This document shows, piece by piece, positions 35,400 through 59,271 of a stretch of 64,000 bases of DNA; the stretch's first letter is position 1, and each line of letters starts with the position of its first letter. The notes beneath the pieces are model-generated. The model saw nothing but the letters and a program-made list of their open reading frames with translations. It had not been told where the DNA came from and did no database searches. The translations under genes and the position numbers were made by a program. The stretch comes from a virus: positions 45,479 to 109,478 of IMG/VR virus record IMGVR_UViG_3300021511_000005; one strand, written 5' to 3'.

Positions 35400-35855
35400 A
35401 TGACCACCCTGATCATCACGGCGATCCTGTGGTTGGCGCCTCAGGTGGAGCCGGCGGACGCGAAGCTCTACGCGACTCATATTCAGCGAGAGGCCACCCG
35501 CTGGGACCTGGACCCCCTGCTGGTGCTGGCGGTGATCAAGCGGGAGTCCGGCTTCAACCCCAGGGCCAGGTCCAAGACGTCCGACTATGGCCTGATGCAG
35601 GTCCATGTCTCCAAGACGACCTACTCCGGCTACCTCCATCATCCGGAACGACTCTACAACCCCAAGCTCAACATCCGTTTGGGGATCCGCCTGATGGCCA
35701 TCTGGAGGGACTACCACGCCGGCCGATGTGAGGGTCAGCATCCGTTCTGGGCCCACTTCAAGTACGGCAAACGGATCCCGCGCAAGCGCAAGGGCAAGAA
35801 GGTGGACGCTATCTACCGGGAGCTGGTGGCCAAGTTCCGCAGTTCGGGGGTTTGA
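35400..35855 (+). CDS. lytic transglycosylase (SLT domain)
   Basis: LDPLLVLAVIKRESGFNPRARS...GLMQV...LYNPKLNIRLG; N-terminal signal. Confidence 0.88.
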   Translation: MTTLIITAILWLAPQVEPADAKLYATHIQREATRWDLDPLLVLAVIKRESGFNPRARSKTSDYGLMQVHVSKTTYSGYLHHPERLYNPKLNIRLGIRLMAIWRDYHAGRCEGQHPFWAHFKYGKRIPRKRKGKKVDAIYRELVAKFRSSGV

Positions 35856-40900: not shown

Positions 40901-43403
40901 TGGCCCGGTCAAGTGGTCCAAGACGGATGGCGGCTACGAAGCCCGCGGCGGCTCCATCAAGATCCGGAAGCAGGGCAAGAAGTGGGAGATGGTCTACTAC
41001 GGCGAGACCATCCCCATCACCACCAGGAAGCCGAGCTTCGACCACGCGGAGGGTTTGATTCGCGAGCGTGAGGCGCCAAAGCAGACCGACCTGTTCCGTG
41101 CCCTGATGGCCACGGGTCTCTTCGAGCTGCGGAAGGCGGCGGGGCACAAGTACTTGAAGCGGATCCCCACGGGCAAGCCCAAGCCCAAGTATCGCTACAT
41201 CTACCGCCAGCCCAAGGGTGGGCTCACCAGCTCCAGGGACATCCAGGCCGGCGCCAAATTCAAGGTGGAGCACGCCGGCAAGTTGGGTCACTTCGAGGTC
41301 AAGGGCCACGACGCCCACAACGGAATCGTGACGCTGCAGCATGACGAGTCGGGCAGGATCGCCCATATCCGGGAGAAGGACCTACACCGGATGATCACCA
41401 GCCACCACGAGAAGCAGACCAAGAAGGTTACCGAGAAGCCGGACGAGTTCGCGGCAGAGCGGGCGGAGCTGCGCCAACGGCTGGCCACGAGTGAGGCCAA
41501 GCGCCGGCGCGCGGAGAAGAAGGCCCCCAAGAAGCCGGAGGCCAAGGGGCCCGTTCCGGAGCTTCCGCGGGCGAGCCTGGAAGACCTGGGCAAGGGTGGC
41601 TACGACAAGATCGAGGGCTTCAGTGCCGACCCGAAGGATCTGGAGACGCAGGCGTCCCTGATGGGGGGCGATCGGGAGTATGCGATCATTCCCCAGGCCG
41701 GTGGTCACGTTCTGGCGAGCCGGGCCAAGGCCAGCGGGACGGTCAAGGAGGCCAAGGGAGACAAGGCGGAGCTGGTGATGCGGGGCTCCAAGGGCAAGAG
41801 CCTGGACAAGGTGGAGGTGGAGTACGTGGTGATGGAGGCCAAGGACCTGGTGGCCAGTCATGATCCCACAAGCTTCGAGCCCCGGGCGGCCTATCCCGAG
41901 GGCGTCCAGGAGCGGCGTTACGAGGTCCAGGGCTCCGGTGATCAGGGCAAGATCGATCGCATTGCGCGGGAAATGGAGCCGGCGCTGATGGTCAACACCA
42001 ATCCGTCCGCCATCGACGGGTCCCCGATGGTCACCGAGGAGGGGATCGTCCTGGGCGGCAACGGGCGAACCATGGGCCTGCAGCGGGCCTATCAGCTCTA
42101 TCCAGAGAAGGCTCAGGAGATGAAGGACTACCTGGCCAAGCATGCCCGCGGCTTCGGCGTTAGCTCCGCAGAGCTGTCCAAGATGAAGCAGCCGGTCCTG
42201 GTGCGGCGGATGAAGGCGGAGACCAAGGATCTGACCGCGCTGGGTCGGCGGATGAATGAGGCGCTGACCCAAGGCATGGACCCGCGGACCATCGAGGTCG
42301 CGCTGGGTCAGAACTACGTCACGCCCGAGCTGATGGACAGCCTCACCCACAACATGGACCCGGGCCAGTCGATGTCCGAGTTCCTGCGGACCGCCAAGTC
42401 CCGCCCCTTCGTGGAGGCGCTCGAGCGCGCCGGCGTTATCGACCAGTACAACAAGGACGAGTTCGTGGAGAAGGGAAAGGGTGTCCTGAACGAGGACGGC
42501 CGGATGCGGGTGGAGCGAGTTCTGACCGCTCGCATGATCCCGGATGCCAGCGCCTTGTCCCGGATGGGGACCAAGCTCCGGCAGACCATCGCCAAGAGCG
42601 TCCCTTCCCTGATCCAGATGGAGCGCAACGGGTGGAGCGTCCAGGAGGCGCTGGAGCTGGCCGTCAAGGTGGACAACGACATGCGGCTGGAAGGCTTCAG
42701 CGGCGGGACCCGGACGTCCAAGAAGGCAGGCGGCAAGATCAAGATCCCGATGTCCGAGCACCGCGAGTCCTACAGGCAGCAGCAGACCCTGGGGGACAGC
42801 CTTCAGCGCCAGATCGAAGGGAACCCGCTGGCCCAGCTCCTGCTCGAGACGATCCAGGACAAGGCGGACAAGAACATGCCGTCCAAGTGGCGTCAGGTGG
42901 CGCTCGAGGCGGATCGCCAACGGGCGCGCAAGGCCTCCGCCGGTGAAGCTAAGGGTCAGGCCATGCTGGGCGGCGAGGACATCGTGGAGGAGCGGTCCTT
43001 GGAGGACAGCATCCGCGGCGCGTTCGGGCTGAAGAAGCAGGCCCAGCAGGGTGGCCTGTTCGCCATGAGCCTCCCGGAGCCGGATCTGGTGAAGGCCGGC
43101 GCGGAGCTGACCAGCTACCTGATGCACGCGGTCTTGTGGGAGGTCGAGAACCTGATCCGCGGGGCGGTGGTGGACGGGAAGCCCCCGAGCGGCGGGCAGC
43201 TTTTGCCGCGGCTCCAGGCCTTCATCAAGGACCAGGCCGCGGCGGACCAGAAGTTCGCCCAAGCTTTGGGCGCTCATCCCCTGAGTTCGGAGGCCCTGAA
43301 GGGGCTCCTGAAGGCCTCCGCGATGTCACGATCGACAGACCTGGCCAAGAGCATGGCTCGCTCGAGCCTGCATGCCAGCTGGAGGGATTTGTATGCCGGC
43401 TAA
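37953..43403 (+). CDS. 1816-aa polyvalent head-associated protein (Zn-finger/OB module; DdrB-like ParB module)
   Basis: CDVC...RRRN.VFV...VGGEC and C-terminal OB-like strand set; YVVMEAKDLVASHD...QER.Y...DGSPMV...VLGGNGRTMGL...PVLVRR (DdrB-ParB). TTG start with AGGAGAGG RBS. Confidence 0.8.
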   Translation: MSHYLRNPLIPGQGPKLVIGMRNLRNDVRVDTSALAELTRPPKPLGRPVIPGGEHEYRSADEVAKGLGLNHDQERDFLQAMKAWLSEPNVVSFRKSLVRGLRKMAPGNGPLRGELARRAVQVWKATRGNHPSRTYGREGQPQDIIRKAKKDKPISGQLGLFGGTLPKGVTVGKPKKPKKQVKAAAASAGWQAIPAGKHGGQRRRKGNKWEYRYPDGKGGWSGQPQKAEPKPVKVPELKPEARKMAYKGLRTWVTASGHGTTKEELEQRLAAALEAQKQSEVFSFKVTHVKREKAQKHDDGRSVPAYDEWDVEVEHQAAIPGHQLTGKIETATGVVTLFHDKATVSKDDYARAQRGVCDVCKTKRRRNSVFVVQRESDDKHLLVGGECSKKFKGANLWRLANAMEEVDLGGAIADAFDEGEGFGGGGGGGPRSAEPHDLLGTALWLVRKEGYIGGADADAEMTMSTPDRVKEILAGGKAAPTKEEQAEIDREAELIKKDLPEIRKWIQERIPTDPDAVITKDIAFAVTVDKLLGSDFIEPKHFSRVVWVPHRYYKMVQRREQKAKAKPYEAPHAKMHNLPGEWTILSNTVKDSDYGSYNSVTAMDAEGHKIWFRQTDAYDLKEGDKVTLRGKLKDQKDTITFMSHMKVKNLSEEKRQSVIEAEAEEFRKERARRMASTDPKEIVQVKMHEAYDPTPGGTERQSAFRKKLVKAVVALMKEGAEIPHDALYTTWDYFDGYGDDKRPEKEKRGDPVAAAATRQYAKVQAGENPVNAKELLELLPEVGARMIRKKLGEEAAKWIFKRAGLAKSMDDDLARLRPRMILQPTSHPMELVWMAEEVPDNLHETWKRMPPGWPAADEILKAKYFKRTGSPGNYVYYYKRDDGSVQAVRQKMHPEGDPRRRGPYKKTKNAKGETVYTGGEKPPGAGWEKIPESPHGGMRRPVSGGKVRQWEFWYPGGGEKQTAMFGGGGAAPPAPAAPEAAKGGPVKWSKTDGGYEARGGSIKIRKQGKKWEMVYYGETIPITTRKPSFDHAEGLIREREAPKQTDLFRALMATGLFELRKAAGHKYLKRIPTGKPKPKYRYIYRQPKGGLTSSRDIQAGAKFKVEHAGKLGHFEVKGHDAHNGIVTLQHDESGRIAHIREKDLHRMITSHHEKQTKKVTEKPDEFAAERAELRQRLATSEAKRRRAEKKAPKKPEAKGPVPELPRASLEDLGKGGYDKIEGFSADPKDLETQASLMGGDREYAIIPQAGGHVLASRAKASGTVKEAKGDKAELVMRGSKGKSLDKVEVEYVVMEAKDLVASHDPTSFEPRAAYPEGVQERRYEVQGSGDQGKIDRIAREMEPALMVNTNPSAIDGSPMVTEEGIVLGGNGRTMGLQRAYQLYPEKAQEMKDYLAKHARGFGVSSAELSKMKQPVLVRRMKAETKDLTALGRRMNEALTQGMDPRTIEVALGQNYVTPELMDSLTHNMDPGQSMSEFLRTAKSRPFVEALERAGVIDQYNKDEFVEKGKGVLNEDGRMRVERVLTARMIPDASALSRMGTKLRQTIAKSVPSLIQMERNGWSVQEALELAVKVDNDMRLEGFSGGTRTSKKAGGKIKIPMSEHRESYRQQQTLGDSLQRQIEGNPLAQLLLETIQDKADKNMPSKWRQVALEADRQRARKASAGEAKGQAMLGGEDIVEERSLEDSIRGAFGLKKQAQQGGLFAMSLPEPDLVKAGAELTSYLMHAVLWEVENLIRGAVVDGKPPSGGQLLPRLQAFIKDQAAADQKFAQALGAHPLSSEALKGLLKASAMSRSTDLAKSMARSSLHASWRDLYAG

Positions 43404-46400
43404 CGTTGTGACGACTGGGACGGACGAGGCCCGGTGGGCCCGTGCGAAGGCAGCGGCGGCCAAGCAGGGAAAGGCCAAGAACTACGCGCTGGTGATGCAC
43501 ATCTACAAGCAGATGACCAAGGCGAAGGACCCGGATGAAGACGAGGGCGAGGCCCACAAGATGCCCATCCCGGGGATCCCCGCGAGCTGGAACAAGGGGG
43601 AGATTCTGACCGGTGGCGAGGGGGACAAGCGGCCGGACTCCGACTTTGACGCCACGGCGCTGAAGCAGGGGATCAAGGTGGAGTTCGAGCACACCACCAG
43701 CCGAGCGGTGGCGAAGGAGATCGCCAAGGACCACCTGACCGAAGACCCCCAATATTACAAGAAGCTGGCGACCATCGAGAAGGCGTTTCCAGGTCCGGCA
43801 GCTCCACCGGCGGGACATGCGGCCGGCGGCGCTCAGATTGGGGAGGTCCACGACTGGGGCCGGGGCAAGATGCGGAAGGTGGCTCCGGGTAAGTGGGAGC
43901 CGGTGACGGGGCCGCAGTCGGGGGCAAAACAGCAGCCCACAGGGCCAGAGCCAGCCACAGAGGGCACGGCGGACCATCACCGTCAGCAGGCCCTGGTCCA
44001 CACCCAGGCGGCCATGGCGCACGCCGTAGCTCACCAGAGCGCCAAGGAGCAAGAAGAGGCCGCCAAGCATGACGACAACGTCAGGGAGGCCAAGGAAGCC
44101 AGCCAGGAGGCTTACGAGGGCAAGGACGGCCGCCCGGTCGAGCCCCAGAGCCTGGAGGACAAGATCAAGGCTCTGATGGAAGAGCACGGCCAAGATGCGG
44201 TAGCCGCGGCTACCAGCAAGGCGGCCAAGGCCACAGCGGCCGGGCTGGACAAGGCTTTCCAGGCGGAGGCCAAGAAGGTGGCGGGCTCTGAGGGTGTCCA
44301 AGCGGCCGCCGGCGATGCCATCGCCGCGGCGGGCATCAAGAAGGGCGGAGAGGCTCCTAGCAAGTCTCAGGTGGACCAGGCGGTCAAGCACGCAGCCCAG
44401 GACCCCAACGTCAAGAAGGCGGCCCGGGATGGGCTGAAGGCGCTTGAGGGCCCCGGCGCGGACGCCTTGGTGTCGGGACTCGAGGCCGCGGTTCCGCCGG
44501 AGGAAAAGAAGAAGGCGAGCTGGAAGACCAAGGCGGCCGCGGTGGCCAAGATGATGATCCGGCCGTTTGTCTTCGGGTTCGTGGATAACTTCGTGATGTA
44601 TGTCGCGGGTTCCGCGGTGGACGGCGCTGTCCAGGGCGCTGGCTTCAGCTCTGCGGCCACGGCGGGGATCGGCAACGCCATCTCTGACGCGGTGGGCGAG
44701 ACCGCTGGCGGCTTGCTCGAACGGGCTCTACCGGACGAGGAGAAGCTGAAGGCGGAGCTGGGCAAGGACACCTACGAGAAGATGGAGAAGTTCCTGCAGC
44801 CGCTGGGGGTCTTTACCGGCGCGCTGCTGGGGATGATTCCGTTGGCCTTCGGGGTATCCTTCGGTAAATCTATGCGGCGGGAGATGGACATCCAGAAGGC
44901 CAGAGCCAAGGTCGCCGCGGGGCAGATGGGCTTCCAGTTTGGGGCGGCGAAGCCGGCCGGCGGCGGCGAGGGTTCGAGGGGTGGCGAAGTTGTGGGTCAC
45001 ACGGCCAGCGGCAAGGCCATTTACAAGAAGAAGGTCGCGGACCACGAGGCCAAGGCCAAGGAGCATGCCACCGCGGCAGCCAAGGCGACGGACCACGGTG
45101 TTCGGACCAAGCATTTGCACGCGGCCAAGGCTCACCAGGTTGCCGCGTCAGCCCACCGTATTGGGCACAAGGACGCGGACAAGGTGAGCACGGGGGCGGA
45201 AGGTTACAGCCGGCGAGCCCATCGGGCGCGGCCGACAGCGCCCCAGCGTCCTAAGCTTCAGCGGCCCACGTCTGCGGACCGTCCGCCGGGGATGCGAGCG
45301 AGGGCACCGGCAGCCAAGAAGGTGTCACAACCACACGCACAACCGGGCTCCGGCTCGCACCTGCAATTCTCAATGGAGGACAACATGGACATGAACAAGG
45401 CCGAGCTGCGGAAGTCTCTGATCAGTTTCCGCGGTCTGCGGAAGGGGCTGTACAACCGCGTGACCGAGTGGGCCGGTCAATTCATGGGGACGCCGCTGTA
45501 CGTGGAGGCGTTGCGCTGCCTGAAAGAGAAAGCCCAGTGCGACAAGGAGGCGGAGGCCACGCGGGCCAAGCATAAGTCTTGGCGTGAGCTGGAGGAGCTT
45601 CCGCGGAGTCGGCGCCAGGAGATGCGGAAGAAGCAGGACAAGGCCATGGACGTCCACCACCAGCGCAGCAGCAAGATCCTAGCGAAGATGGACGGTTTGG
45701 AGGAGAGGCTTCTGGACCACCAGATCGCGGAGGCGGAGCGGATGGGCAAGGGCGACGTGGACAAGGCCACGCCGATCAACCTTCCGGTGATCAAGTCCAC
45801 GGACGCTGTTGTCGAGGGGTTGGAGGAGCTGTTCAAAGCCGGCCAAGCGGCTGGACCTTTCCGCGGTCCCAAGGGTGGGCTGTGGGCTGATCCCGAGCAC
45901 AAGGTCCCCTATAAGCCGTTGGCGGGCAAGACGTCCAAAGCCGGACACAAGGGGGCCCACAAGGCTCATGTGATTCACCACGAGCGGGAGGCGGTCCGCG
46001 CGCGCAACAAGGGCAACGAGAAGGTGGCTGGCGCGCACCTGGACGCGGCGGACGCCCACAAGGTCGCGATGAAGGCCAAGCCCACTACGCTTGCGCGAGA
46101 GGCTGCCTATTCGGCTACCAAGAAGGCGAGTCACGACAAGGATCGGGCAATCCGGAAGCAGGCCTCGCACGTCAATAGCCACAAGGACCACGGGCATTAT
46201 GCCGCCCGGCTCCGCAGCTCGGCGGAGGAGGCCAAGCAGATGGGGATCGGCTCCCATGTAGACAAGTTGGCCCGGCAGCACGAACAGGCCAGCTCCGCCC
46301 ACAAGCACGCTGCGGAGATGCACGGTAAGGGGCACGAGTCCGCGGATGACCACAGCAAGGTGGCAGCCAAGGCCACGTCCACGGCCTTCGGGGATCCCAC

Positions 46401-47622
46401 GAAGCTCCCCCCATCACCACCGCCGGCGAACAAGGAGTCCGTCTTGGGCGGAGGCCACGCCCATCCAGCAGGGACTAAGGGAGCCGCTGAGCATCACGGC
46501 AAGTCCAAGGACTACCATGGGCGCCAGGCCGCCCACGCGCTGGCTCACGGCTACAAGAAGGACGCCATGATGCACGCGATGGCGTCCAAGCTCCACGGGG
46601 ATGCTCAGGATTTCCACGACAGCAAGCATGACGACGCGGGCTACTGGAGTGAGATGGCAAACAGCTCTACCAGAGCCGCAGAGCATCCCGAGGGCTTCAG
46701 CGACAAGCCGGGGGCCAAGACGACCCGAGAGGAGAAGGCAGCGATGGGCAAGAGCTTGGACCAGACGATGGACGATCTGATGAAGGCGGCCAACGGGGAG
46801 CCTGTGGCCGCATCCATGCGCCCCAAGGACGGCAAGGACGCCCAGACCAGTCTGGTGAAGAAGAAGTCTGGAGAGGAAGAGGAGGAGAACGGTCCCGGGG
46901 ACAGCGAGCACCACAAGGACCAGGCGATGTCCCATCTGGCGGCCGCCCAGGCCCATGCCACGGCCCACCGTTCCGCGAAGCAGCTCGAATCCGCGGACGG
47001 GCATCAGAAGAACGTCGAGGCGGCGCAGCAGGCCAGCGAGGCCGCAGCTCCGCCGGAGGAGGAGAAGAAGCCGGTGAAGAAGCCAAACGCGATCAAGAAG
47101 GGGTCCATGGTGATTCACCTGGACGCCGAAGAGGAGATCCTCAAGGGACTGGGCGACTCCGGGTTATCGGTCCAGGGAGCGGCCCAGGATCCCTACGGCA
47201 AGTACCGGATGGCTGCCATGGGGCGCGGAGATCCCGATGAGAACGTTCGCGCGGCGTCCTTCGAGAAGAGCGGGGTGGCCGGCGGGACGATCTTCGAGGG
47301 CGAGCACAACACTCAGGGTTTCCGCGAGGGTGACTCCCGGGAGGCCCATATGCGCGCCCAGGAGCTGGCCCAGGTAGTGGAGGATGACCCGGCGGGCTTC
47401 GAGGGTCAGGGCGGCCTTCCGAGCTGGTGGAGGGACGCGGGCCACCTGGTCAACGTCCCGGTGGGGGTCCGACCGATGGTCAAGGCGGTGGAGCCCCCGG
47501 TTCAGATCCTGGACGATTCCGACCCTCACACGCGGGCGATGGTCAACACCGATCCGCGCGAGGGGCAGATGGGCGCTCTGATGGCATACAAGGGCGCTGG
47601 CAAAGGCCGCGGCACCCGATAG
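43393..47622 (+). CDS. 1409-aa multi-module head-associated protein (DUF5661-like, His-rich helical repeats, TMEM65-like membrane domain)
   Basis: GGEGDK...GIKVEFEHT...EIAKDHLTEDPQYYKKL (DUF5661-like); PFVFGFVDNFVM...AGIGNAISD...GALLGMIPL; ATG 43393 with GGAGG RBS. Confidence 0.75.
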   Translation: MPANVVTTGTDEARWARAKAAAAKQGKAKNYALVMHIYKQMTKAKDPDEDEGEAHKMPIPGIPASWNKGEILTGGEGDKRPDSDFDATALKQGIKVEFEHTTSRAVAKEIAKDHLTEDPQYYKKLATIEKAFPGPAAPPAGHAAGGAQIGEVHDWGRGKMRKVAPGKWEPVTGPQSGAKQQPTGPEPATEGTADHHRQQALVHTQAAMAHAVAHQSAKEQEEAAKHDDNVREAKEASQEAYEGKDGRPVEPQSLEDKIKALMEEHGQDAVAAATSKAAKATAAGLDKAFQAEAKKVAGSEGVQAAAGDAIAAAGIKKGGEAPSKSQVDQAVKHAAQDPNVKKAARDGLKALEGPGADALVSGLEAAVPPEEKKKASWKTKAAAVAKMMIRPFVFGFVDNFVMYVAGSAVDGAVQGAGFSSAATAGIGNAISDAVGETAGGLLERALPDEEKLKAELGKDTYEKMEKFLQPLGVFTGALLGMIPLAFGVSFGKSMRREMDIQKARAKVAAGQMGFQFGAAKPAGGGEGSRGGEVVGHTASGKAIYKKKVADHEAKAKEHATAAAKATDHGVRTKHLHAAKAHQVAASAHRIGHKDADKVSTGAEGYSRRAHRARPTAPQRPKLQRPTSADRPPGMRARAPAAKKVSQPHAQPGSGSHLQFSMEDNMDMNKAELRKSLISFRGLRKGLYNRVTEWAGQFMGTPLYVEALRCLKEKAQCDKEAEATRAKHKSWRELEELPRSRRQEMRKKQDKAMDVHHQRSSKILAKMDGLEERLLDHQIAEAERMGKGDVDKATPINLPVIKSTDAVVEGLEELFKAGQAAGPFRGPKGGLWADPEHKVPYKPLAGKTSKAGHKGAHKAHVIHHEREAVRARNKGNEKVAGAHLDAADAHKVAMKAKPTTLAREAAYSATKKASHDKDRAIRKQASHVNSHKDHGHYAARLRSSAEEAKQMGIGSHVDKLARQHEQASSAHKHAAEMHGKGHESADDHSKVAAKATSTAFGDPTKLPPSPPPANKESVLGGGHAHPAGTKGAAEHHGKSKDYHGRQAAHALAHGYKKDAMMHAMASKLHGDAQDFHDSKHDDAGYWSEMANSSTRAAEHPEGFSDKPGAKTTREEKAAMGKSLDQTMDDLMKAANGEPVAASMRPKDGKDAQTSLVKKKSGEEEEENGPGDSEHHKDQAMSHLAAAQAHATAHRSAKQLESADGHQKNVEAAQQASEAAAPPEEEKKPVKKPNAIKKGSMVIHLDAEEEILKGLGDSGLSVQGAAQDPYGKYRMAAMGRGDPDENVRAASFEKSGVAGGTIFEGEHNTQGFREGDSREAHMRAQELAQVVEDDPAGFEGQGGLPSWWRDAGHLVNVPVGVRPMVKAVEPPVQILDDSDPHTRAMVNTDPREGQMGALMAYKGAGKGRGTR

Positions 47623-47631
47623 GAGGCCCTG

Positions 47632-49341
47632 ATGGGCGACTTCATGGAGGGCCTGTCCAAGGCGCTGGAAGGCGTCATGGTGGACGCGATGACCAACGCG
47701 ATGGCGAAGGCCAACGCGCGGGACATCGATGGTCGTCAACCGATGACGCTGGAGGGGGCGAAGCCCCAGCCTCTGCCACCTGAGCCGGCCATGGACGAGC
47801 CGACCGGGCTCCTGTTCGATCCCTTCGCCCTGATTGACCAGTTGGGCTACCGGGACCGGCCCAGCGGCCTGACTTATCAGACGCTGCGGGAGATGGCCAA
47901 GCGGGTCCCGACCTATGCGGCCATCGAGCAGATCCGGGTCAACCAAATCTGCGGCTTCGCCCAGCCCCAGGAAGACGAGCGGGATCCGGGCTTCAAGATT
48001 GAGCTGCGAGACTTCAAGCAGACCCCGAGCCGCAAAGACGTCAAGCGCATGAACGAGATAACGGACTGGGTCCAGCAGACTGGGACCGCCTGGGGTCCGA
48101 CGCGCGATGATTTCCGGACCTTCCTTCACAAGCTGTCCCGGGACAGCCTCGAGCTGGATCAGGGGACCTTCGAGGTCGGGCTCAACCGCAGGGGGGTTCC
48201 AGCGGAGTTCGTTTGTCTTGATGGCGCCACCATGCGGCTGGCGGATGTTCCGCCGGGCGCGGAGCATCGACCTGATCCGACGGACATCAAGTACGTACAG
48301 GTCTACGATGAGATCATCATCGGGGAGTTCCCGATCAATCGGCTGTGCTGGGGGATCCGCAACCCGCGGTCTGACATCCGGGCCAACGGCTACGGCTACT
48401 CCGAGCTGGAGATGTTGATCAACGTCATCACGGCGAGCCTGTGGGCCTTCGAGTACAACAAGCGCTTCTTCTCCCAGGGGACGAGCGCCAAGGGCGTGGT
48501 GAACCTGAAGGGCGGCGTCCCCGATGCCAAGATGGATGCCTTCCGCCGCATGTGGCAGATGATGATTGCCGGCGTGGGCAACGCCCACCGGACCCCGATG
48601 GTGTCCGTGGACGAGGTTCAGTGGATCGATCTGCACAAGTCCAACACGGATATGGAGTACTCCGCGTGGATGGATTGGCTGATCAAGATCACATGTGCGG
48701 TCATGTTGATGGATCCGGCGGAGCTGAACTTCAATTACGGCAACACCGGTCAGGCCAGCCAGATGTATCAGGCGCCGGCCGAGCAGAAGATGAAGGCCTC
48801 CAAGGACCGCGGGCTCCGGCCGCTGTTGACCTACTTCGCCAAGTGGATCAACACCCACCTGATCTGGCGGCTGGACCCCAACTACCGCCTGGTCTTCAAG
48901 GGGCTTGACGCCAAGGGCGAGGATGAGAAGGTGGACCTGTCCAAGAAGAAGTCCTCCTACCTGATGACGGTGGACGAGCTGCGCGCGGAAGAGGATTTGG
49001 AGCCACTGCCGGACGAGCTGGGGAACGTCATCCTGGATCCCACCTGGCTCCAGAACAAACAGGCCGCCGAGATGGCCGCCCAGGGCGATATGGGGATGGA
49101 GGGGGAAGAAGACGAGGAAGGGCCGGCGCCACCGCCGGGGGTCCCTGGGGTGGATGACCAGGAGGAAGAGGACGACGGTTCAGACGACTTCGATCAGATC
49201 TTCGGTCAGGCTGACCAGGAAGAGAAGTCCCTGTCCGCAGCGGAGCGGATCCGCGCATCACGTCAGCGGCTTGAGGCGGGCCAGCCGGATGACGATCCAC
49301 TGCAGAAGGCCCGAGTCACCGTCTACGAGATCGACCTGTAG
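47632..49341 (+). CDS. portal protein
   Basis: RDSLELDQ, LDGATMR, RNPRSD...GYGYSELE, YNKRFFSQGT, DMEYSAWMDWLIKITCAV..MDPAELNF, SKDRGLRPLL, MTVDELR; resembles SPO1/Twort-like portals. Confidence 0.92.
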   Translation: MGDFMEGLSKALEGVMVDAMTNAMAKANARDIDGRQPMTLEGAKPQPLPPEPAMDEPTGLLFDPFALIDQLGYRDRPSGLTYQTLREMAKRVPTYAAIEQIRVNQICGFAQPQEDERDPGFKIELRDFKQTPSRKDVKRMNEITDWVQQTGTAWGPTRDDFRTFLHKLSRDSLELDQGTFEVGLNRRGVPAEFVCLDGATMRLADVPPGAEHRPDPTDIKYVQVYDEIIIGEFPINRLCWGIRNPRSDIRANGYGYSELEMLINVITASLWAFEYNKRFFSQGTSAKGVVNLKGGVPDAKMDAFRRMWQMMIAGVGNAHRTPMVSVDEVQWIDLHKSNTDMEYSAWMDWLIKITCAVMLMDPAELNFNYGNTGQASQMYQAPAEQKMKASKDRGLRPLLTYFAKWINTHLIWRLDPNYRLVFKGLDAKGEDEKVDLSKKKSSYLMTVDELRAEEDLEPLPDELGNVILDPTWLQNKQAAEMAAQGDMGMEGEEDEEGPAPPPGVPGVDDQEEEDDGSDDFDQIFGQADQEEKSLSAAERIRASRQRLEAGQPDDDPLQKARVTVYEIDL

Positions 49342-49998: not shown

Positions 49999-52900
49999 TT
50001 GGCCCTGTTGACACCAGAACAGCTGGAGCAGCTGCGGCGCGCCATTCAAGACGCATCGACCGCCGTGGCAATCTCCACCGTGGGCCACACGGTCACGGAT
50101 GACGAGCTGCAGCGGCTGGTGGACGAGGGCTGGGTGGATCCCGATAAGGTAGACGACGTCGTCATGACGGGTTTCCAGTACGGTAATCTGTTGAGCCACC
50201 TTCCCCGGGCCGCGGACATGGGCCTGGGGGCCTTCATCAAGGAGATCCAGCGGAACCCGATCAAGCTGTCCGCCGCGGAACGCCAGGCCGTCCAGATCGC
50301 GAGGGACCGTGCTGGCCAATACTGCGCGGGCCTGGGCTCGAGGTACAACGAAGAGATGGGCCGGATGGTGGTGGAGGCGGACGCCCAGCTGGCCAAGGTT
50401 ACTCGAGAGTTGATTGCTGACGAGACCGCCAAGAACATCGCCACACGCGGGACGCGGAAGCAGCTGGGTCAAACCCTGGGCAAGTTGACCCGCGACTGGG
50501 CCCGCGACTGGCGCCGAATCGCTAATACTGAGATTCATATGGCCCAGCAGGAGGGCTACCTGGAGGACGTCCGCGAGCGTTACGGGGACGATGAGCTGCT
50601 GGCCAAGATCCCCGAGCCCAACGCTTGCAAGCATTGCAAGCGGCTCTACCTGGATGGCGATGGTCAGCCCATCGTCCGTCCGGCGTCTTGGTGGGCAGCT
50701 CAGGGGGCGAGCAACGCCGGCCGCAAGGCTGCGGACTGGCTCCCCGTCCTGGGAGCGATGCACCCCTGGTGCCAGTGCCGGATGATCCGGGTCCCGGCGG
50801 GCTGGAAGCTGGACGGCGAGTTTCCCGACTGGGACTTGGTTCCCGAGGGCCTGGAGACGGAGAAGTCCCGAGTCGCGGATACTGCGACACGGGACCAGCT
50901 CGAGAAGGCCAAGAAGCCCACTCAGATGGGTTTCGCCTGGGAGCCTGCTCCGAAGTCCCGGAAGGGTGCGGAGCGGCGCAGGCTGCCCGGTGGGGGCTAT
51001 GAGTACCGCTATCAGACTCCGGTCCGCGCGGAGACCCGGAGGAAGGTCCACGGGGCTGAAGACCTGGCCGCGGTCACGTCGATCTTCGTCAACGTGTCCG
51101 GCGGTTCCGAGCGCAAGCGGTTTGTTCCGCAGGAGGAAGGCGAGGGCGTGGACATCGCGTCCAAGAACGTCCACGCCCAGATCACCGCCCACGAAGTCCC
51201 CAAGACCGACAAGGGCCGGTCCCGCTTCGCCAAGCTGGCGAAGGAGCGCGGGATGCGACTGATGATCGACTCCGGCGAGTTCGGCCGTTTCGGTAAGGAG
51301 CTGCGGGAGTACAAGAAGGCGGAGAAGGAGGAGCGGGAGCCGGTGGTTCCGGAGCTGGACTTCAACAAGGTCTTCGACAACTACGAGGCCATGGCCAAGC
51401 TGTTCCCCGCGGGGAAGCTGACCGTGGTGGCGCCGGACCGCATCGCGAACCCGGACAAGACCGCGGAGCTGCGGAAGCAGTACGCCGGGCGAGTCAAGGC
51501 ACTGCAGGCCGGCGGTGCGGAGGTCATCGTTCCAATCCAGGCCCGGTCCGCAGAAGAGATCGGGAAGGACTACATCGCGGCGACCAAGGTCTTCGGGGAG
51601 GACGTGACGCTGGGCTTCCCCACAGCGGCCGCGGTTCTGCCGATGGAGGAGATCCTCCCGGCGATGGCCCAGCTCTACGCTCACGGCAAGTTCCCGCGGA
51701 TCCACTTCCTGGGCGGCGGACGTCCCCGGGAGATGGCGGAGCGGACGGCGCAGCTCGTGGCAGCGGCCTACTTCGCCGGCCAGGGCGTGGCGCCGGAGCG
51801 TGTCCTGGAGCTGACCAAGACCGCGGACCTGGCAGCCCGCGCGCTACGGAACGTCAAGACCGCGGACATGGTCCTGGGGCGCGAGGCGGACGAGGCGCTG
51901 TCCGCGCGGTTCGAGGCATGGGCGGAGGAGCAGGGCCTGGACACCAGCGATCCGGACTTCGACGAGACGGAGGCCTGGCCCGACTTCTACGAGGCTCACC
52001 CGGAGGAGTTCAACCTGGAGCTGGACAGTGAGGATAAGCCGAAGTTGTTCCGCAAGATGGCCGCGGACCTGGTGCAGATGGACAGCCGCGTGGTGGGTTC
52101 CGCGCAGCAGTACGGTCTCCAGCACGACCCGATCACCGGGACGCAGATCAAGGCGGGGAAGAAAATCACGGCGCTGCCCAAGGCGGAGCGCCATCCGGCC
52201 ACGCTGCAGGCCTATTTAGAGGCTCGCGAGCATCAGACCGAGCGCTTCACCCCGCCGGCGATGTCCGCCTGGGAGGCTCTGTGGGGCGATTTTGAGAAGG
52301 TGGAGAAGGTGGAGAAGTCGCGGAAGCTCCACGGTCGGCGGAAGTTCCAGGGCTTCGATATCTCGATCGAGAACCGGGTGGGTTCAGTCCGTCACTGGTA
52401 CGACAAGGCCACGGACACGAAGGGCGAGACCAAGATGGTCAACCCCTACGGCTACATCCGTCTGACTGAGGGAACCGACGGCGACCATGTGGACGTCTTC
52501 CTGGGAGAGGACGAGCAAGCGCCGCGGGTTTACGTTATCCATCAGATGAAGGCCCCGAGCTTCACCGAATACGATGAGGACAAGTGTATGTTGGGGTTTC
52601 CGTCGGCGCGGGCGGCCAAGGCGGCCTACCTTCGCCACTTCGACAGTCCCAAGTTCTTCGGCTCGATGACAGCGCTTCCCGTGGAGGAGTTTCGCAAGAA
52701 GGTCTACAAGATGAAGGGCGAGCTGATCAAGGCGGGAGGGACCTACTCCGGATACGCCTCTGGTTCCCAGCCGCGGTCCACGTCGATCGTAGGAACCATG
52801 GGGCAGCATGATCGGAAGGCTCCACGGACGGCCGGGGCCAATGTTCGCGAGAACCGGGCGGATCACACCGAGGACTGGCCGCCCTATCAGGAGCGGCGGA

Positions 52901-53208
52901 TCCGCAAGGTCCGCAAGGTGGTCTCCGCGGAGGGAGCCGCCGATCCGGTCCTGGCAGGGGTGAGCCTGACCCAGCTCGTGGCCGCCGCAGAGCGGTTCAA
53001 CGTCCGCGGGCTTCAGCAGAGCCACGACTGGGCCAACAAGCCAAAGCTGGACCGTTGTCCGGACCTGAACGAAGCTGTGGCCCGGACGGACGCGGGCAAG
53101 AAGAATCTGGAGACCGTCGAGGAGATAGGACGCCAGCGGCGGAAGACCGCGGCGGGGGCGCGTTTGACGCTGAACCCCAAACTGATCCGAAGGGAGCAGA
53201 AGCGATGA
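49999..53208 (+). CDS. MuF-like head morphogenesis protein fused to TGT/DpdA-like barrel and polyvalent-type inorganic pyrophosphatase (InPase)
   Basis: RDWRRIANTE...ACKHCKRLY...MHPWCQC (MuF-like); IDSGEF...VAPDRIAN...VIVPIQ...IHFLG...DS; ISIEN.VGSVR...PYGYI..TEGTDGDHVDVFLG...YDEDKCMLGF (InPase). Confidence 0.8.
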   Translation: MALLTPEQLEQLRRAIQDASTAVAISTVGHTVTDDELQRLVDEGWVDPDKVDDVVMTGFQYGNLLSHLPRAADMGLGAFIKEIQRNPIKLSAAERQAVQIARDRAGQYCAGLGSRYNEEMGRMVVEADAQLAKVTRELIADETAKNIATRGTRKQLGQTLGKLTRDWARDWRRIANTEIHMAQQEGYLEDVRERYGDDELLAKIPEPNACKHCKRLYLDGDGQPIVRPASWWAAQGASNAGRKAADWLPVLGAMHPWCQCRMIRVPAGWKLDGEFPDWDLVPEGLETEKSRVADTATRDQLEKAKKPTQMGFAWEPAPKSRKGAERRRLPGGGYEYRYQTPVRAETRRKVHGAEDLAAVTSIFVNVSGGSERKRFVPQEEGEGVDIASKNVHAQITAHEVPKTDKGRSRFAKLAKERGMRLMIDSGEFGRFGKELREYKKAEKEEREPVVPELDFNKVFDNYEAMAKLFPAGKLTVVAPDRIANPDKTAELRKQYAGRVKALQAGGAEVIVPIQARSAEEIGKDYIAATKVFGEDVTLGFPTAAAVLPMEEILPAMAQLYAHGKFPRIHFLGGGRPREMAERTAQLVAAAYFAGQGVAPERVLELTKTADLAARALRNVKTADMVLGREADEALSARFEAWAEEQGLDTSDPDFDETEAWPDFYEAHPEEFNLELDSEDKPKLFRKMAADLVQMDSRVVGSAQQYGLQHDPITGTQIKAGKKITALPKAERHPATLQAYLEAREHQTERFTPPAMSAWEALWGDFEKVEKVEKSRKLHGRRKFQGFDISIENRVGSVRHWYDKATDTKGETKMVNPYGYIRLTEGTDGDHVDVFLGEDEQAPRVYVIHQMKAPSFTEYDEDKCMLGFPSARAAKAAYLRHFDSPKFFGSMTALPVEEFRKKVYKMKGELIKAGGTYSGYASGSQPRSTSIVGTMGQHDRKAPRTAGANVRENRADHTEDWPPYQERRIRKVRKVVSAEGAADPVLAGVSLTQLVAAAERFNVRGLQQSHDWANKPKLDRCPDLNEAVARTDAGKKNLETVEEIGRQRRKTAAGARLTLNPKLIRREQKR

Positions 53209-55259
53209 ATTGGGACACCTGGCTGGACAATTTGGTGGGACCGAAGTTGGTCTTGGACCTGGCGAAGGCGAAGCGGAAGGCCGCAGAGGGTCAGATGGGC
53301 CTGTTCGATCAACCGGCGAAGCCCGCCGCGAAGCCAAAGCCCAAGGCTCCAGCGGCCAGCGGCTGGCAGGCGATCCCCGGCGGCAAGAAGGGCGGCCAGC
53401 GGCGGAAGCAAGGCGGCAAGTGGGTCTATCGTTACCCGGACGGCAAGGGTGGCTACAGCTCGAGCCCGCCCAAGCCCAAGGCGAAGCCCAAGGCGAAGCC
53501 CGAGTCCGCGCACCGGGTCCCCACGTCGGGCGAGTTCGACGGGCGGACCAAGCCCTATCCGAGGCACTCAACGCTTGAGATCGGCCGGGGCTTCGATGCC
53601 CAGCACATCAGCGGACCCAAGGCGATGCCTGGGGATCACTGGACACACTCCCTGGCAGCCGATCCCAACGCGACGATGAAGATCTTGTCCCAGCGGTTTG
53701 ATCGGTACGGTCAGTGGAGTTACGTCGTGGAGTACGCCAGTGGCAATACCGGCGTGGTTCCCGAGCACAGCTTGAAGTCCATGAAGGCGAAGCCCCGAGG
53801 CGATAAGTCCGCGTCAGCTCCGAAGCCGAAGCCGTCCAAGGTCAAGCTCGAGCCGGCCAAGCCCGCCGGTCCGGAACGCCGGATCGCAGAGCGGTGGATG
53901 GCGATGAACCAGCGGGAGAAGATGGCCAATCTCCAGGAGCTGGGGCAGCAGAAGGGGATGAGCCTCATCTACGACGGGAAGAACTACATCGTTTCCCAGG
54001 GCAAGGACCACAAGGTCGCGGTGGGCTCCATCGCGGAGGCCAAGGACCTGATCCAGGCCGGCTCCGTCAAGGGGGCCAAGCCGGTCCCTGGGACCACAAG
54101 CTGGACCAAAGCGCCCGGCGGCGAGACCCTGGCCGTCACGGACAAGGCGGGCTTCGCGATTGCGAAGGACAACACCGTGACCAAGGTGGAGGGGAAGAAG
54201 AAGACCACCGTGGGCAAGTTCGAGTCTGAGCCGGAGGCGGTCCACGCGGTCAAGCAGGCCGCTGCGCCAAAGCCCAAGCCCAAGCCGAAATACAAGTTGG
54301 CGCCGGTCGAGCACTACGACGGCTATGGACCCAACGCATGGCGCGGCGCCAAGTCGGGAAAGCTGGGAGCCAAGGAGACCACGGCCGCGGTTCGCAAGGA
54401 GATCAAGCAGGCCCAGGCCGCGGGATGGCTCCCGGAGGGTGTGAAGGTCAGCGTGTCCCACGAGGGCTACGCCGGCGGCTGGTCCATGAATCTGAAGATC
54501 AAGGAGCTACCTCCGGGGATGATGCTCTACGAGGCCGCGGATTATGACGAGTTCGAGCATCGGTATGAGACGCCGTCCGAAGGGGGCAAGGTCCCGGTCA
54601 TGCGTCCGGAGATCGCGGACATGATCAAGAAGATGGAGCAGATTGCGGATCAGTATAACTACGATGACTCCGATTCCATGACCGACTACTTCAATCGCGG
54701 ATTCTACGTCCACAGCGGCGTGGGTCATGAGTTGGACAGTCTCCATCGGACGATGGCGTTGGATCCGGCCAAGGGTGTTGTCTTGGGCTCCGCGGCCCAG
54801 GCTCTCAAGACTCGCGACTTGGGGGACATTCAGGACGCTTTGGTGGGCTATCACGGCTCCGGCATGGACAAGGACGAGCGCGGACCTTGGGGGCTGGGTC
54901 AAGACCTGCGGAAGGTTCTGGCGGACAACTTGGGCGAGCTGGCTGGGCAGCACGGAGGGAAGCTCCAATCCGAGAAGACCCAGGCGCAGTATCGCTCCAA
55001 GGGCTTTCCGCCGAGCAGGATCCGCCAGATCTACGGCTTTGAGACGGAGGCCGGCGCCGAGAAGTTCTACGAGCTGGTGGCGGGCTTAACGGGCGCGGAC
55101 TGGGAGAACCCGGCCCCAAGAGATATGCGGGTGGTGCGGATGGGGCACCAGGTGGACCTGGTCAACATCCCGCTGGATGTCCCCAGCAAGCGGAAGGGCC
55201 ACAAGGCCAAGAAGAAGGTGAAGAAGTCCATGGAGCCGAGGCTTGTCCTCCACGTCTAA
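53205..55259 (+). CDS. 684-aa polyvalent protein with LPD29-like domain
   Basis: ATGA-coupled start (MNWDTW); ETTAAVRKEIK...VKVSVS...YAGGWSM...YNYDDSDSMTDYFNRGFY. Confidence 0.75.
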   Translation: MNWDTWLDNLVGPKLVLDLAKAKRKAAEGQMGLFDQPAKPAAKPKPKAPAASGWQAIPGGKKGGQRRKQGGKWVYRYPDGKGGYSSSPPKPKAKPKAKPESAHRVPTSGEFDGRTKPYPRHSTLEIGRGFDAQHISGPKAMPGDHWTHSLAADPNATMKILSQRFDRYGQWSYVVEYASGNTGVVPEHSLKSMKAKPRGDKSASAPKPKPSKVKLEPAKPAGPERRIAERWMAMNQREKMANLQELGQQKGMSLIYDGKNYIVSQGKDHKVAVGSIAEAKDLIQAGSVKGAKPVPGTTSWTKAPGGETLAVTDKAGFAIAKDNTVTKVEGKKKTTVGKFESEPEAVHAVKQAAAPKPKPKPKYKLAPVEHYDGYGPNAWRGAKSGKLGAKETTAAVRKEIKQAQAAGWLPEGVKVSVSHEGYAGGWSMNLKIKELPPGMMLYEAADYDEFEHRYETPSEGGKVPVMRPEIADMIKKMEQIADQYNYDDSDSMTDYFNRGFYVHSGVGHELDSLHRTMALDPAKGVVLGSAAQALKTRDLGDIQDALVGYHGSGMDKDERGPWGLGQDLRKVLADNLGELAGQHGGKLQSEKTQAQYRSKGFPPSRIRQIYGFETEAGAEKFYELVAGLTGADWENPAPRDMRVVRMGHQVDLVNIPLDVPSKRKGHKAKKKVKKSMEPRLVLHV

Positions 55260-55569: not shown

Positions 55570-56376
55570 ATGGCCAACCATCCTTCAGAGATACCGTTTC
55601 ACTTCGAGCTGCCCATAGAGGTATGGGAGAAGGCTGGCGATCCCGGCAAGGAGCGGCGGATCGGCGGCGTTATCTCTTCTCAGGACAAGGACCGCCAGGG
55701 CGAGGTTGTCCTTCAGCGCGGTCTGGACTTCTCCGAATTCATCGATCACGGGTGGTTCAACGATAACCACAGCAAGGATACGACGGGGATCGTCGGTTAC
55801 CCGGAGAAGGTGGAGAAGCGGACCATCAACGGGCGCCCCGAGCACTACGTGGAAGGCTATCTGCTGCGGGGTTTCGATAAGGCGGACGAGATCTGGAAGT
55901 TGGCTCAGTCGCTTCAGAAGACCAACCGCCGGCTGGGCTTCAGCATCGAGGGCTCCGTGATGAGGCGGGAAGGGCTCGACGGAAAGACGATTGCCCAGGC
56001 CAAGGTCCGCAACGTGGCGATCACGAATTGTCCGGTCAACACGTCCACGGGTCTCGAGATTCTGGCCAAGAGTATGATGGCCATGGAGTCCGAGGGTGAT
56101 CAGTCCGCGGCGGCCCACAGATGCTGGGGGGAGGGCGACTGTTGTGGAAGCTGCGAGACCGCGGACGCCGAGAAAGCGATGTCCGCTGGTCAGGCGGTGA
56201 GCGACCCGGGCGCATCTCCGGGCGAAGGCTTCGCGTTGCGGACCGAATCCATGGAAAAGAAGCCTAAGCGACTGACCAAGGCGGAGGCGATCAAGTTCCT
56301 TCAATCCCGTTATCGCGATCTGTCCAAGGCGGACGCGGAACGAATCTATCGCCACGCGGTCAAGATGGCCGCGTAA
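55570..56376 (+). CDS. prohead (capsid maturation) protease, HK97/U35-like
   Basis: DRQGEVVLQRGLD, NDNH, IVGYP, YVEGYL, LGFSIEG, VAITNCPVN. Confidence 0.9.
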   Translation: MANHPSEIPFHFELPIEVWEKAGDPGKERRIGGVISSQDKDRQGEVVLQRGLDFSEFIDHGWFNDNHSKDTTGIVGYPEKVEKRTINGRPEHYVEGYLLRGFDKADEIWKLAQSLQKTNRRLGFSIEGSVMRREGLDGKTIAQAKVRNVAITNCPVNTSTGLEILAKSMMAMESEGDQSAAAHRCWGEGDCCGSCETADAEKAMSAGQAVSDPGASPGEGFALRTESMEKKPKRLTKAEAIKFLQSRYRDLSKADAERIYRHAVKMAA

Positions 56377-57837: not shown

Positions 57838-59271
57838 ATGGGAGACAACGCATTTGTGAGCTGGCGAGACTACGAAGGTCTCGACGGCTTCGGCGCGGCC
57901 AGCCAAGCGGACGTCCAGGACCTGCGGAAGGCGCTTGCCGCGGGCCAGGATGTCAACAACCCGGGCACGGCCGCCGGTGAGGGCTTCCCGCTCCGCATCG
58001 AGTCGCTCGAGCGGACGCTGAAGGTCGTCACGTATCGCATGGACGATGTCCGCCTGTGGCGGAACATCACCAAGCTTCCGGCCTACAACACGGTCGAGGA
58101 GTACAACCGGCTGAGGAGCTACGGCTCCGGGGACGGAAACGCTTTCATCGCGGAGGGCAACCTCCCCGAGACGGACGATTCGACCTACAGCCGTGAGTTC
58201 ACCATCATCAAGTACCTGGGCACCACCCGGAGCGTGACGCACGTCATGTCCCTGGTGCGACCGGCCCATGGTCCGGTGGTGGCCCAGGAAACCATCAACG
58301 GGACTGCCTGGCTGCTCAAGCAGATCGAGCGGGCCCTGTTCTTCGGGGACTCGTCCCTGGTGCCGGTCCAGTGGGACGGGCTCGACGTGTTGATCACGGC
58401 GGGCGCGCCGGCGGCCAACATCATCGACCTGCGGGGTCAGCCGTTGTCGGAGGATGTCCTCAACGATGGCGGTTTGACGGTCAAGACCGCCCCCAACTAC
58501 GGGCGGGCGACCGACCTGTACCTGGCCGATGGCGCCTACAGCGACCTGGCCAAGTCCTTCTACCCGGCGGAGCGCTACAACATCCCGCCCGGCGGCTGGA
58601 CTGATGGAATGGTGGGGATGCAGATCAAGGGCTTCCACAGCATGGTCGGCCCCATCATGTTCAACCCGGACGTCTTCGTCGAGTTCGGCGCGGCCCCGGC
58701 CGCGGCAGCGGTTGGCGCGGCGGCCACCAGGCCGGGTACCCCGACCGAGGACGTGGCCCCTGCGGCCGCCGGCACGGGTTCCCAGTTCACCGCGGCGGAC
58801 GCCGGCGACTACAACTACAAGGTGGTCGCCATCAACCGGTACGGCAAGAGTGCAGCGCTGGCTCTGACCGGTCCGGTGACGGTCGCCACGGGTGAGCAGG
58901 TCACCTTCTCGATCGGTGACGGTTCCCCAATCGCCACGGCCTACGAGGTCTACCGCAGCCCGAAGGACGGCGCGGTGGGCACCGAGAAGCTGGCCTTCAC
59001 CACGGCATGGACGGCGGATCCGACGGTCATCACCGACACCAACGCCTACTTGCCGGGGACGAGCACGGCATTCCTCGTTCAGCAGAACGTGGAGTTCTTC
59101 TCGTTCAAGCAGCTGGCCCCGTTCGTGAAGATCCCGCTCGCCACGATCGACACCAGCATCCGTTGGATGCAGTTGATTTACGGCGCGCCGACGGTCTACG
59201 CGCCGGGCAAGTCCGTGATTTACCGGAACGTTGGCCGTGCGGTCGGTTCCGTGGGTGGCGGCGGCGCCTAG
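57838..59271 (+). CDS. major capsid protein (Herelleviridae-like)
   Basis: DLRK|ALAAG, LRIESLE, PAYNTVEEY, AFIAEG, IKYLGTTRSV, IERALFFGDSSL, QWDGL, IIDLRG, YNYKVVAINRYGKSA, QLAPFVKIPLA. Confidence 0.9.
   Translation: MGDNAFVSWRDYEGLDGFGAASQADVQDLRKALAAGQDVNNPGTAAGEGFPLRIESLERTLKVVTYRMDDVRLWRNITKLPAYNTVEEYNRLRSYGSGDGNAFIAEGNLPETDDSTYSREFTIIKYLGTTRSVTHVMSLVRPAHGPVVAQETINGTAWLLKQIERALFFGDSSLVPVQWDGLDVLITAGAPAANIIDLRGQPLSEDVLNDGGLTVKTAPNYGRATDLYLADGAYSDLAKSFYPAERYNIPPGGWTDGMVGMQIKGFHSMVGPIMFNPDVFVEFGAAPAAAAVGAAATRPGTPTEDVAPAAAGTGSQFTAADAGDYNYKVVAINRYGKSAALALTGPVTVATGEQVTFSIGDGSPIATAYEVYRSPKDGAVGTEKLAFTTAWTADPTVITDTNAYLPGTSTAFLVQQNVEFFSFKQLAPFVKIPLATIDTSIRWMQLIYGAPTVYAPGKSVIYRNVGRAVGSVGGGGA

Follow-up and report, generated by a model that had tools for sequence, protein, structure and literature searches.

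A DpdA/TGT-like barrel of an unnamed clade in a probable MuF-type polyvalent virion protein from an uncultured phage

DpdA is regarded as a signature of 7-deazaguanine DNA modification in phages. We analyzed a gene encoding a DpdA-like barrel in a 64,000-nucleotide stretch of viral DNA (the window), which forms the right-hand part of a virus record of 109,478 bp (IMG/VR IMGVR_UViG_3300021511_000005; completeness judged 97%, GC content about 64%). Its 1069-amino-acid (aa) product consists, in order, of a MuF-like domain, a basic tag, a barrel of about 390 aa, an inorganic pyrophosphatase (InPase) domain and a basic tail. We found that the barrel very probably belongs to the superfamily of tRNA-guanine transglycosylases (TGT) and DpdA. 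Our preferred reading, to which we give a probability of roughly 60%, is that the barrel is catalytically competent and belongs to a new clade of this superfamily which has no name yet; that, as predicted from sequence comparison, it most likely performs base exchange by double displacement; that it is probably packaged and released together with the DNA; and that DNA is its most likely substrate. The family is very divergent, widespread in uncultured phages and unnamed. The gene, the barrel and the motifs which carry this reading were located as follows.

49999 to 53208, + strand: whole gene of the MuF-type polyvalent virion protein, 1069 aa, a single open reading frame (ORF) with a TTG start
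51070 to 52242, + strand: DpdA/TGT-like (beta/alpha)8 barrel, residues 358 to about 748
51256 to 51282, + strand: RLMIDSGEF, residues 420-428
51268 to 51282, + strand: D424-S-G-E-F428 at the end of strand 3, counterpart of the acid/base Asp and the base-stacking Phe (DpdA D95/F99; Cap10 D73/S74)
Residues 476-484: VVAPDRIAN
51436 to 51438, + strand: D480 (A-P-D) after strand 4, counterpart of the base-recognition Asp (DpdA D130, Cap10 D122)
Residues 509-514: VIVPIQ
51538 to 51540, + strand: Q514 (V-P-I-Q) after strand 5, at the position where a polar residue reads the base edge, namely His in DpdA and Lys in Cap10
Residues 538-541: LGFP
51697 to 51717, + strand: RIHFLGG, residues 567-573
51703 to 51714, + strand: H569-F-L571-G572 on strand 7, counterpart of DpdA VHLLG (L236 stacks on the base) and Cap10 H226
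51775 to 52062, + strand: residues 593-688, a 96-aa helical insertion separating helix 7 from strand 8; it is acidic, with a net charge of -13
52075 to 52086, + strand: QMDS, residues 693-696, on strand 8 of the model, with D695 as the proposed nucleophile

The original prediction, made from the DNA sequence alone, had proposed a TGT-like barrel, and the modelled fold agreed with it. The AlphaFold model of the barrel, built from a 108-sequence alignment, had a predicted local distance difference test (pLDDT) score of 84.6 and a predicted template modelling score of 0.82, and showed a TIM barrel with eight strands alternating with helices. When this model was searched against 48,161 PDB representatives, chains of the TGT superfamily occupied ranks 1, 2, 3, 4 and 6, and the Foldseek list was headed by the TGT of Z. 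mobilis. For one small superfamily to take five of the six best chains is beyond chance expectation, as judged from the predicted structure. Among the viral models of BFVD (Foldseek), an ART-PolyVal polyvalent protein ranked first (E 6e-9), and phage DpdA-type proteins were prominent among the best matches: the list included phage proteins annotated as queuine tRNA-ribosyltransferase, i.e. DpdA, as well as proteins of two phages that encode DpdA2 and DpdA3, Vibrio phage nt-1 and Cellulophaga phage phiST (PMC6884629).

To collect relatives of the barrel, 1.84 billion cluster representatives were searched exhaustively with HMMER, and 146 proteins were returned. Sixteen of them were close relatives (42-71% identity), all of which were large multidomain proteins; the remaining ones, about 130, were distant (26-41% identity over the matched stretch) and mostly stand-alone proteins of 250-470 aa. 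Ten of these distant relatives were scanned against Pfam and NCBIfam without a match. The two groups aligned with each other at 99.95% probability (hhalign, E 6e-38), and by this profile comparison they are clearly homologous. We then compared both groups with a DpdA profile consisting of the experimentally validated phage 9g DpdA (gp03) and ten IMG/VR homologues. The stand-alone, distant family matched this profile at 95.3% (E 2e-8) and the close family at 93.7% (E 2e-7), the alignment pairing the DSGAF motif, the strand-4 Asp, the strand-5 Q/H position and the strand-8 DS. The same comparison of the family with the single E. coli TGT sequence gave a non-significant probability of 2%. Searches with less sensitive means added little: the hidden Markov model of the family touched one PDB sequence only, the bacterial DpdA 7UI4, non-significantly (E 1.4) and on GDCGAF, VHLLG and SIDS; phmmer against PDB sequences gave only chance-level PabI matches for the barrel (E 0.6); and tblastn with the window domain and two stand-alone relatives found no match in 50,697 GenBank phage records. 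When E. coli TGT was used to probe phage records, only bacterial-type tgt genes and no DpdA were returned. PF14350 (T4 Beta_protein), a candidate taken from an Atlas cluster name, was dropped, as it matched neither the window's phage nor phage 9g nor any of three phages with relatives; PF23859 (DpdA) likewise matched nothing in these genomes.

The motifs named in the original prediction (RLMIDSGEF, VVAPDRIAN, VIVPIQ, LGFP, RIHFLGG and QMDS) were all present in the order given there. In DpdA, D95 serves as the acid/base, F99 and L236 stack on the base, D130 and H181 recognize it, and D256 is the nucleophile (PMC10164549); in Cap10, the residues concerned are D73/S74, D122, K154, H226, which pairs with the nucleophile, and D248 (bioRxiv 10.1101/2025.04.06.647259). 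DpdA D95, F99, D130, L236 and D256, and Cap10 D73, S74, D122, H226 and D248, all of them of importance according to mutagenesis or structures, had invariant counterparts in the barrel family. The aspartate of the D424 motif was invariant (107/107 aligned relatives), and the motif aligned with GDCGAF of DpdA 7ui4 and DSGAFS of phage 9g DpdA. D480 was likewise invariant (108/108) and aligned with the D of LDGIGD in phage DpdA. Gln occupied position 514 in 104 of 108 relatives, opposite the His of CFHAGE in phage DpdA, and H569, L571 and G572 were kept in 108/108, opposite VHLLG of 7ui4. The close family was invariant at D424-S-G-x-F, P479-D480, Q514, P541, H569-x-L571-G572 and D695, and in 108 relatives of 18-29% identity these motifs, D695 aside, showed little or no variation. 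S367-G368, V-A-P-D480, G506 and P512-x-Q514 were also invariant or nearly invariant across the 108 aligned members. Because of this conservation in the close family and, D695 aside, across the 108 relatives, the barrel motifs are, at the level of sequence, more than chance. The catalytic aspartates anticipated by the original prediction, D424, D480 and D695, were thus present and invariant (D695 in the close family), and the His of HxLG was kept. As far as alignment can tell, the set of catalytic and base-binding residues is complete in the barrel.

The original prediction had also placed an acidic insertion of about 60 aa ahead of the last DS. An insertion was indeed found there, with a length of about 96 aa (residues 593-688) instead; its acidic stretch EAWAEEQGLDTSDPDFDETEAWPDFYE covers residues 639-665. 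The AlphaFold (AF2) model showed the insertion as helices (model residues 219-334), with pLDDT mostly 87-96. It was restricted to the close family; distant relatives had about 26-30 aa at that place and carried their own Asp at the strand-8 position with the usual spacing, 26-30 residues after HLLG. In the AF2 model, the segment G-V-A-P (596-599), right after helix 7, was coil and helix, and the eighth strand was formed by V-Q-M-D-S at 692-696 (model 335-339). The close family had no Asp in G-V-A-P, and Q693 and D695 were invariant in it. When residues 593-688 were removed, hhalign aligned LVQMDS...DPIT with FCDS...RPLT, with a score of 273.8 compared to 268.6 for the unedited alignment. The Asp of the distant relatives, which D695 matches once the insertion is removed, aligned with the DS of DpdA, and the counterparts of D695 were D256 in SIDS of DpdA, D248 of Cap10 and SCDSS of phage DpdA. 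Based on the model strand 8, the invariance in the close family and the edited alignment, we read residues 593-688 as an insertion and propose D695 as the putative nucleophile.

The setting of the relatives differed between the long and the stand-alone proteins. The long ones were polyvalent proteins, 12 of 24 of which carried InPase; their other modules were LPD1, LPD5, LPD22, LPD38, ART-PolyVal, RadC, PAPS reductase, N6-MTase (N6_Mtase), ddrB-ParB, SLT and helicases. The nearest genes of 28 stand-alone relatives encoded C5 and MT-A70 methylases, Mom, RecT/YqaJ, ParB, DUF5906 or VapE primase-helicases, Thy1 and SNF2, with only one portal among them. The stand-alone relatives reside in a DNA-metabolism and DNA-modification setting. 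One of them, a 433-aa protein of a 70-kb uncultured phage judged 97% complete (L049, 9956-11257), was located directly beside QueC and a QueE-like radical-SAM gene. The interval L049:9956-14466 held the relative, followed on the opposite strand by the QueE-like gene, QueC, a 135-aa ORF and a Mom-family gene, and a DUF927 primase-helicase was located upstream of the relative. The 135-aa ORF next to QueC had no Pfam match. This island is a compact candidate for deazaguanine DNA modification in which the new clade replaces a known DpdA. DUF6610 (DpdA4) reached a sub-cut-off score of 17 bits against two stand-alone relatives, that of L049 included.

Bacterial assemblies with relatives came from Edaphobacter modestus, Granulicella, Myxococcota, Alphaproteobacteria and Salinibacterium, where the genes presumably sit in prophages. 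More distant relatives, at 24-27% identity, were also kept in several cultured strains of Microvirga (L086-L090), one of them on the 731-kb plasmid pMVF16-3, and these strains may offer a culturable system for the barrel family. PAPS-reductase domains were part of several polyvalent proteins with the DpdA-like barrel, e.g. those of 1908 aa (L005) and 1909 aa (L018). We rejected this co-occurrence (12 of 49 records, several within the same giant protein) as evidence for a pathway and regard it as the usual mixing of polyvalent-protein modules.

From sequence comparison, we infer the exchange or removal of a guanine-type base. In the mechanism we propose, D695 would attack C1' of a guanine nucleotide in nucleic acid and D424 would protonate the leaving base, with the guanine-like base held by D480, Q514, F428 and L571. 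The covalent intermediate would then be resolved by free guanine or by a 7-deazaguanine-type base, which the host would supply. Built into the capsid, the barrel would be released into the cell with the DNA. The context of the relatives and the profile, which was closest to phage DpdA, make DNA its most likely substrate, be it that of the host or the phage genome as it enters. Capsid incorporation is probable because the barrel lies behind a MuF domain in a portal-protease-scaffold-capsid block. By analogy with the MuF fusions and the logic of polyvalent proteins (PMC5512222), and from the position in the head module, the protein is probably packaged and ejected.

Several observations weigh against this reading. 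Residues 358-777 had no match in Pfam or NCBIfam, and the curated models TGT PF01702, DpdA PF23859 and DUF6610/DpdA4 PF20314 left the window protein unmatched. The missing match says little, since the validated phage 9g DpdA, which served as a control, was missed by the same models. There was no Cys in residues 358-777, and the CxCx2C...H structural Zn site conserved in TGT, ArcTGT and bacterial DpdA (PMC10164549) is thus absent; this site is not defining for phage DpdA, because the phage 9g DpdA sequence does not have it either. The Z margin of the barrel model over generic TIM barrels was modest (1.3-2.7). The unedited hhalign alignment set the strand-8 Asp of the family opposite G-V-A-P, and D695 could be assigned only by way of the AF2 model and the edited alignment. 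Finally, the original prediction had pointed to queC, queD, queE and folE as genes to be looked for in the rest of the genome, and this check was negative: the window's phage, at 97% completeness, had no QueC, QueD/PTPS, FolE or radical-SAM protein. QueC was found in only 2 of 48 IMG/VR viral records with relatives, a count which covers the distant relatives, scans of IMG/VR for close-family loci having yielded only two short contigs. A donor of 7-deazaguanine is therefore not evident, and with no preQ0 genes in the phage, any deazaguanine base would be host-derived. There is precedent for singleton DpdAs that depend on the host (PMC6884629).

A more specific scenario can be put forward tentatively. 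A packaged DpdA-like enzyme injected with the genome might use preQ0 or preQ1 of the host and rewrite guanines of the incoming DNA in cis before restriction, or it might strip or hijack the marks of Dpd or of the type IV cyclic-oligonucleotide-based anti-phage signaling system (CBASS). The roughly 130 relatives, stand-alone as well as fused, would then represent a sixth, widespread DpdA-like clade independent of phage deazaguanine synthesis, perhaps with another base. If this were true, packaged base exchange would be the deazaguanine counterpart of DarB, the virion-borne methyltransferase of P1. A true TGT-superfamily enzyme could instead have host tRNA as its target, or be a hydrolytic glycosylase directed at DNA or RNA of the host, and serve as an injected take-over or toxin module and not as an anti-restriction modifier of DNA. 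We consider this rather unlikely, in that the profiles tied the barrel to phage DpdA at 94-95%, compared to 2% for E. coli TGT, and the stand-alone relatives were found among DNA-modification and replication genes. Moreover, the barrel has no Zn subdomain, which is part of the Ins8 by which TGT holds the anticodon arm of tRNA.

Action on protein-linked or free 7-deazaguanine in the manner of Cap10, or counter-defence against type IV CBASS or Dpd marks, is improbable. Direct evidence for it was not found, no Cap9/QueC-like or CD-NTase partner was nearby, and the neighbours of the stand-alone relatives were DNA enzymes. The position after strand 5, which is Lys in Cap10, was Gln in the barrel family. 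It is highly improbable that only the TIM-barrel fold is shared, as it would be in an unrelated enzyme (e.g. of the aldolase or sugar-phosphate type) or in a non-catalytic structural module. Against this stand the five places taken by the TGT superfamily among the six best of 48,161 chains, the profile evidence, which is independent of fold, and the six conserved motifs, which lie on the same strands and in the same order as the catalytic and base-binding residues of TGT, DpdA and Cap10. One relative, moreover, adjoins QueC and QueE.

The remaining parts of the protein were assigned as follows.

49999 to 50853, + strand: MuF-like head-morphogenesis domain, residues 1 to about 285, with CKHCKRLY (210-217) and HPWCQCRM (255-262)
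50899 to 51069, + strand: basic linker, LEKAKK followed by the tag QMGFAWEPAPKSRKGAERRRLPGGGYEYRY (50923-51012)
52330 to 52701, + strand: InPase, an inorganic pyrophosphatase of the polyvalent-protein type, residues 778-901, containing DGDHVD
52702 to 53205, + strand: basic C-terminal tail, residues 902-1069, net charge +14

As to the MuF label of the original prediction, PF04233 matched the N-terminus with E 0.07 and 14.3 bits, below the Pfam cut-off of 29.6; fold matches, language-model neighbours and the position after the portal favoured it. The N-terminus, which starts with MALLT as is common to its homologues, had no match in a PHROG scan. Its AF2 model (residues 1-357) had a pLDDT of 71.5. 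In BFVD, two viral proteins with Hint/intein domains were on top of its fold matches (E 6e-12, TM 0.60), and from rank 4 on (E 1e-4 and weaker) the named matches were mostly MuF, head morphogenesis or minor capsid proteins. Phage_Mu_F was found in 19 of 30 language-model neighbour clusters of the N-terminus (Atlas). MuF genes normally follow directly after the portal. Together, the fold matches, the language-model neighbours and the place right after the portal gene support a MuF-type N-terminus. The linker was poorly modelled (AF2 pLDDT below 50 at 287-311 and 341-357), and its tag (QMGF...GGGYEYRY) was kept ahead of the barrel in the alignment consensus of close homologues. The InPase domain expected after the barrel was recovered with PF18823 (E 2.2e-35, 121.9 bits compared to a cut-off of 26.8); PHROG minor-head or virion families matched this stretch too. 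Pyrophosphate is not released by base exchange. The tail had no significant match in Pfam or NCBIfam.

The neighbouring genes were scanned against PHROGs and revealed a head module with this order.

35852 to 37939: large terminase, first in the module
37953 to 43403: 1816-aa giant protein between terminase and portal, with a ddrB-ParB domain (E 2.5e-21)
43372 to 47622: 1416-aa giant protein between terminase and portal, with a TMEM65-like membrane domain (PF10507, E 6e-14) and DUF5661
47632 to 49341: portal, followed by a 132-aa ORF and the 1069-aa gene
55570 to 56376: prohead protease, after the 684-aa protein
Between prohead protease and major head protein: scaffold
57838 to 59271: major head protein

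The 1069-aa gene was thus located between the portal gene with the 132-aa ORF on one side and a 684-aa gene (ATG at 53205) on the other. Its stop overlapped the start of the 684-aa gene in the sequence ATGA at 53205-53208, and this overlap suggests translational coupling of the MuF-barrel-InPase gene with the 684-aa gene, which carries the same basic tag. The 1816-aa and 1416-aa proteins look like further polyvalent virion cargo. A basic module, GWQAIPxGKxGGQRRxxGxKWxYRYPDGKGG, was nearly identical in the 1816-aa protein (38457-38669) and in the downstream 684-aa protein (53301-53513), and a looser copy, FAWEPAPKSRKGAERRRLPGGGYEYRY, was found ahead of the barrel (50923-51012). This module is a candidate tag for capsid targeting, DNA binding or processing, common to the cargo proteins of the head. 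The same phage also carried a PAPS-reductase-like gene at window positions 20071-20646 (G000:C1:65549-66124; PF01507, E 7e-18) in a 314-aa frame.

DpdAs have been described as ordinary cytoplasmic enzymes, the best-characterized of which are encoded beside preQ0 synthesis genes. The clade reported here was missed by curated models, comprises about 146 metagenome cluster representatives and has repeatedly been built into virion or polyvalent proteins. If the barrel is active, base exchange would join the enzymatic cargo which phages deliver at injection, and more phages would come under suspicion of carrying non-canonical guanines. For testing, there are a defined construct (residues 358-777) and the named residues D424, D480 and D695.

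Compared to known systems, phage DpdA of the 9g gp03 type was closest by sequence profile (hhalign 94-95%). The likeness extended to DSGAF(S), the strand-4 Asp followed by (V/I)GD, the polar residue after strand 5, the His-bearing strand 7 and the strand-8 (C/M)DS; both phage 9g DpdA and the window barrel were without the CxCxxC Zn motif and unseen by the Pfam TGT/DpdA models, and the stand-alone relative of L049 had QueE and QueC as neighbours, as is expected of a DpdA. However, identity between phage DpdA and the barrel family was only about 17-20%, and the family had Gln where DpdA has His after strand 5. Moreover, unlike phage DpdA, the window barrel forms part of a MuF/InPase virion protein and has the 96-aa acidic insertion, and preQ0 genes were missing from the window's phage and from almost every phage with relatives. 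Bacterial DpdA (Salmonella Montevideo, 7UI4) has a Zn site and a large Ins8 after strand 8 and requires the ParB-like ATPase DpdB (PMC10164549), whereas the window protein has no Zn site and its large insertion is placed before strand 8 instead of after it. No dpdB- or dpdC-type partners of the bacterial Dpd restriction-modification system were found near the window gene. In contrast to ArcTGT (1IQ8) and the TGTs of Z. mobilis and E. coli, the window barrel has no Zn subdomain and none of the C-terminal PUA-type domains of ArcTGT, and the barrel family had no significant profile link to E. coli TGT. It also differs from Cap10 of type IV CBASS (9NTN) in that its gene has no CD-NTase or Cap9 partner. 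The closest parallel in architecture was with the polyvalent and MuF fusions of Iyer et al. 2017 (PMC5512222), which follow the same logic of a MuF head domain and then enzymatic modules, InPase included. The terms "TGT", "queuine" and "TIM barrel" do not occur in that paper, and a full-text search of the available literature turned up no paper in which DpdA or TGT-like domains were tied to polyvalent or MuF proteins; on this basis, the barrel seems to be a module of these proteins not previously listed. The fold and the chemistry are already known in kind, and what is new is the clade, its virion and polyvalent setting, its near-complete uncoupling from phage preQ0 synthesis and the insertion ahead of strand 8.

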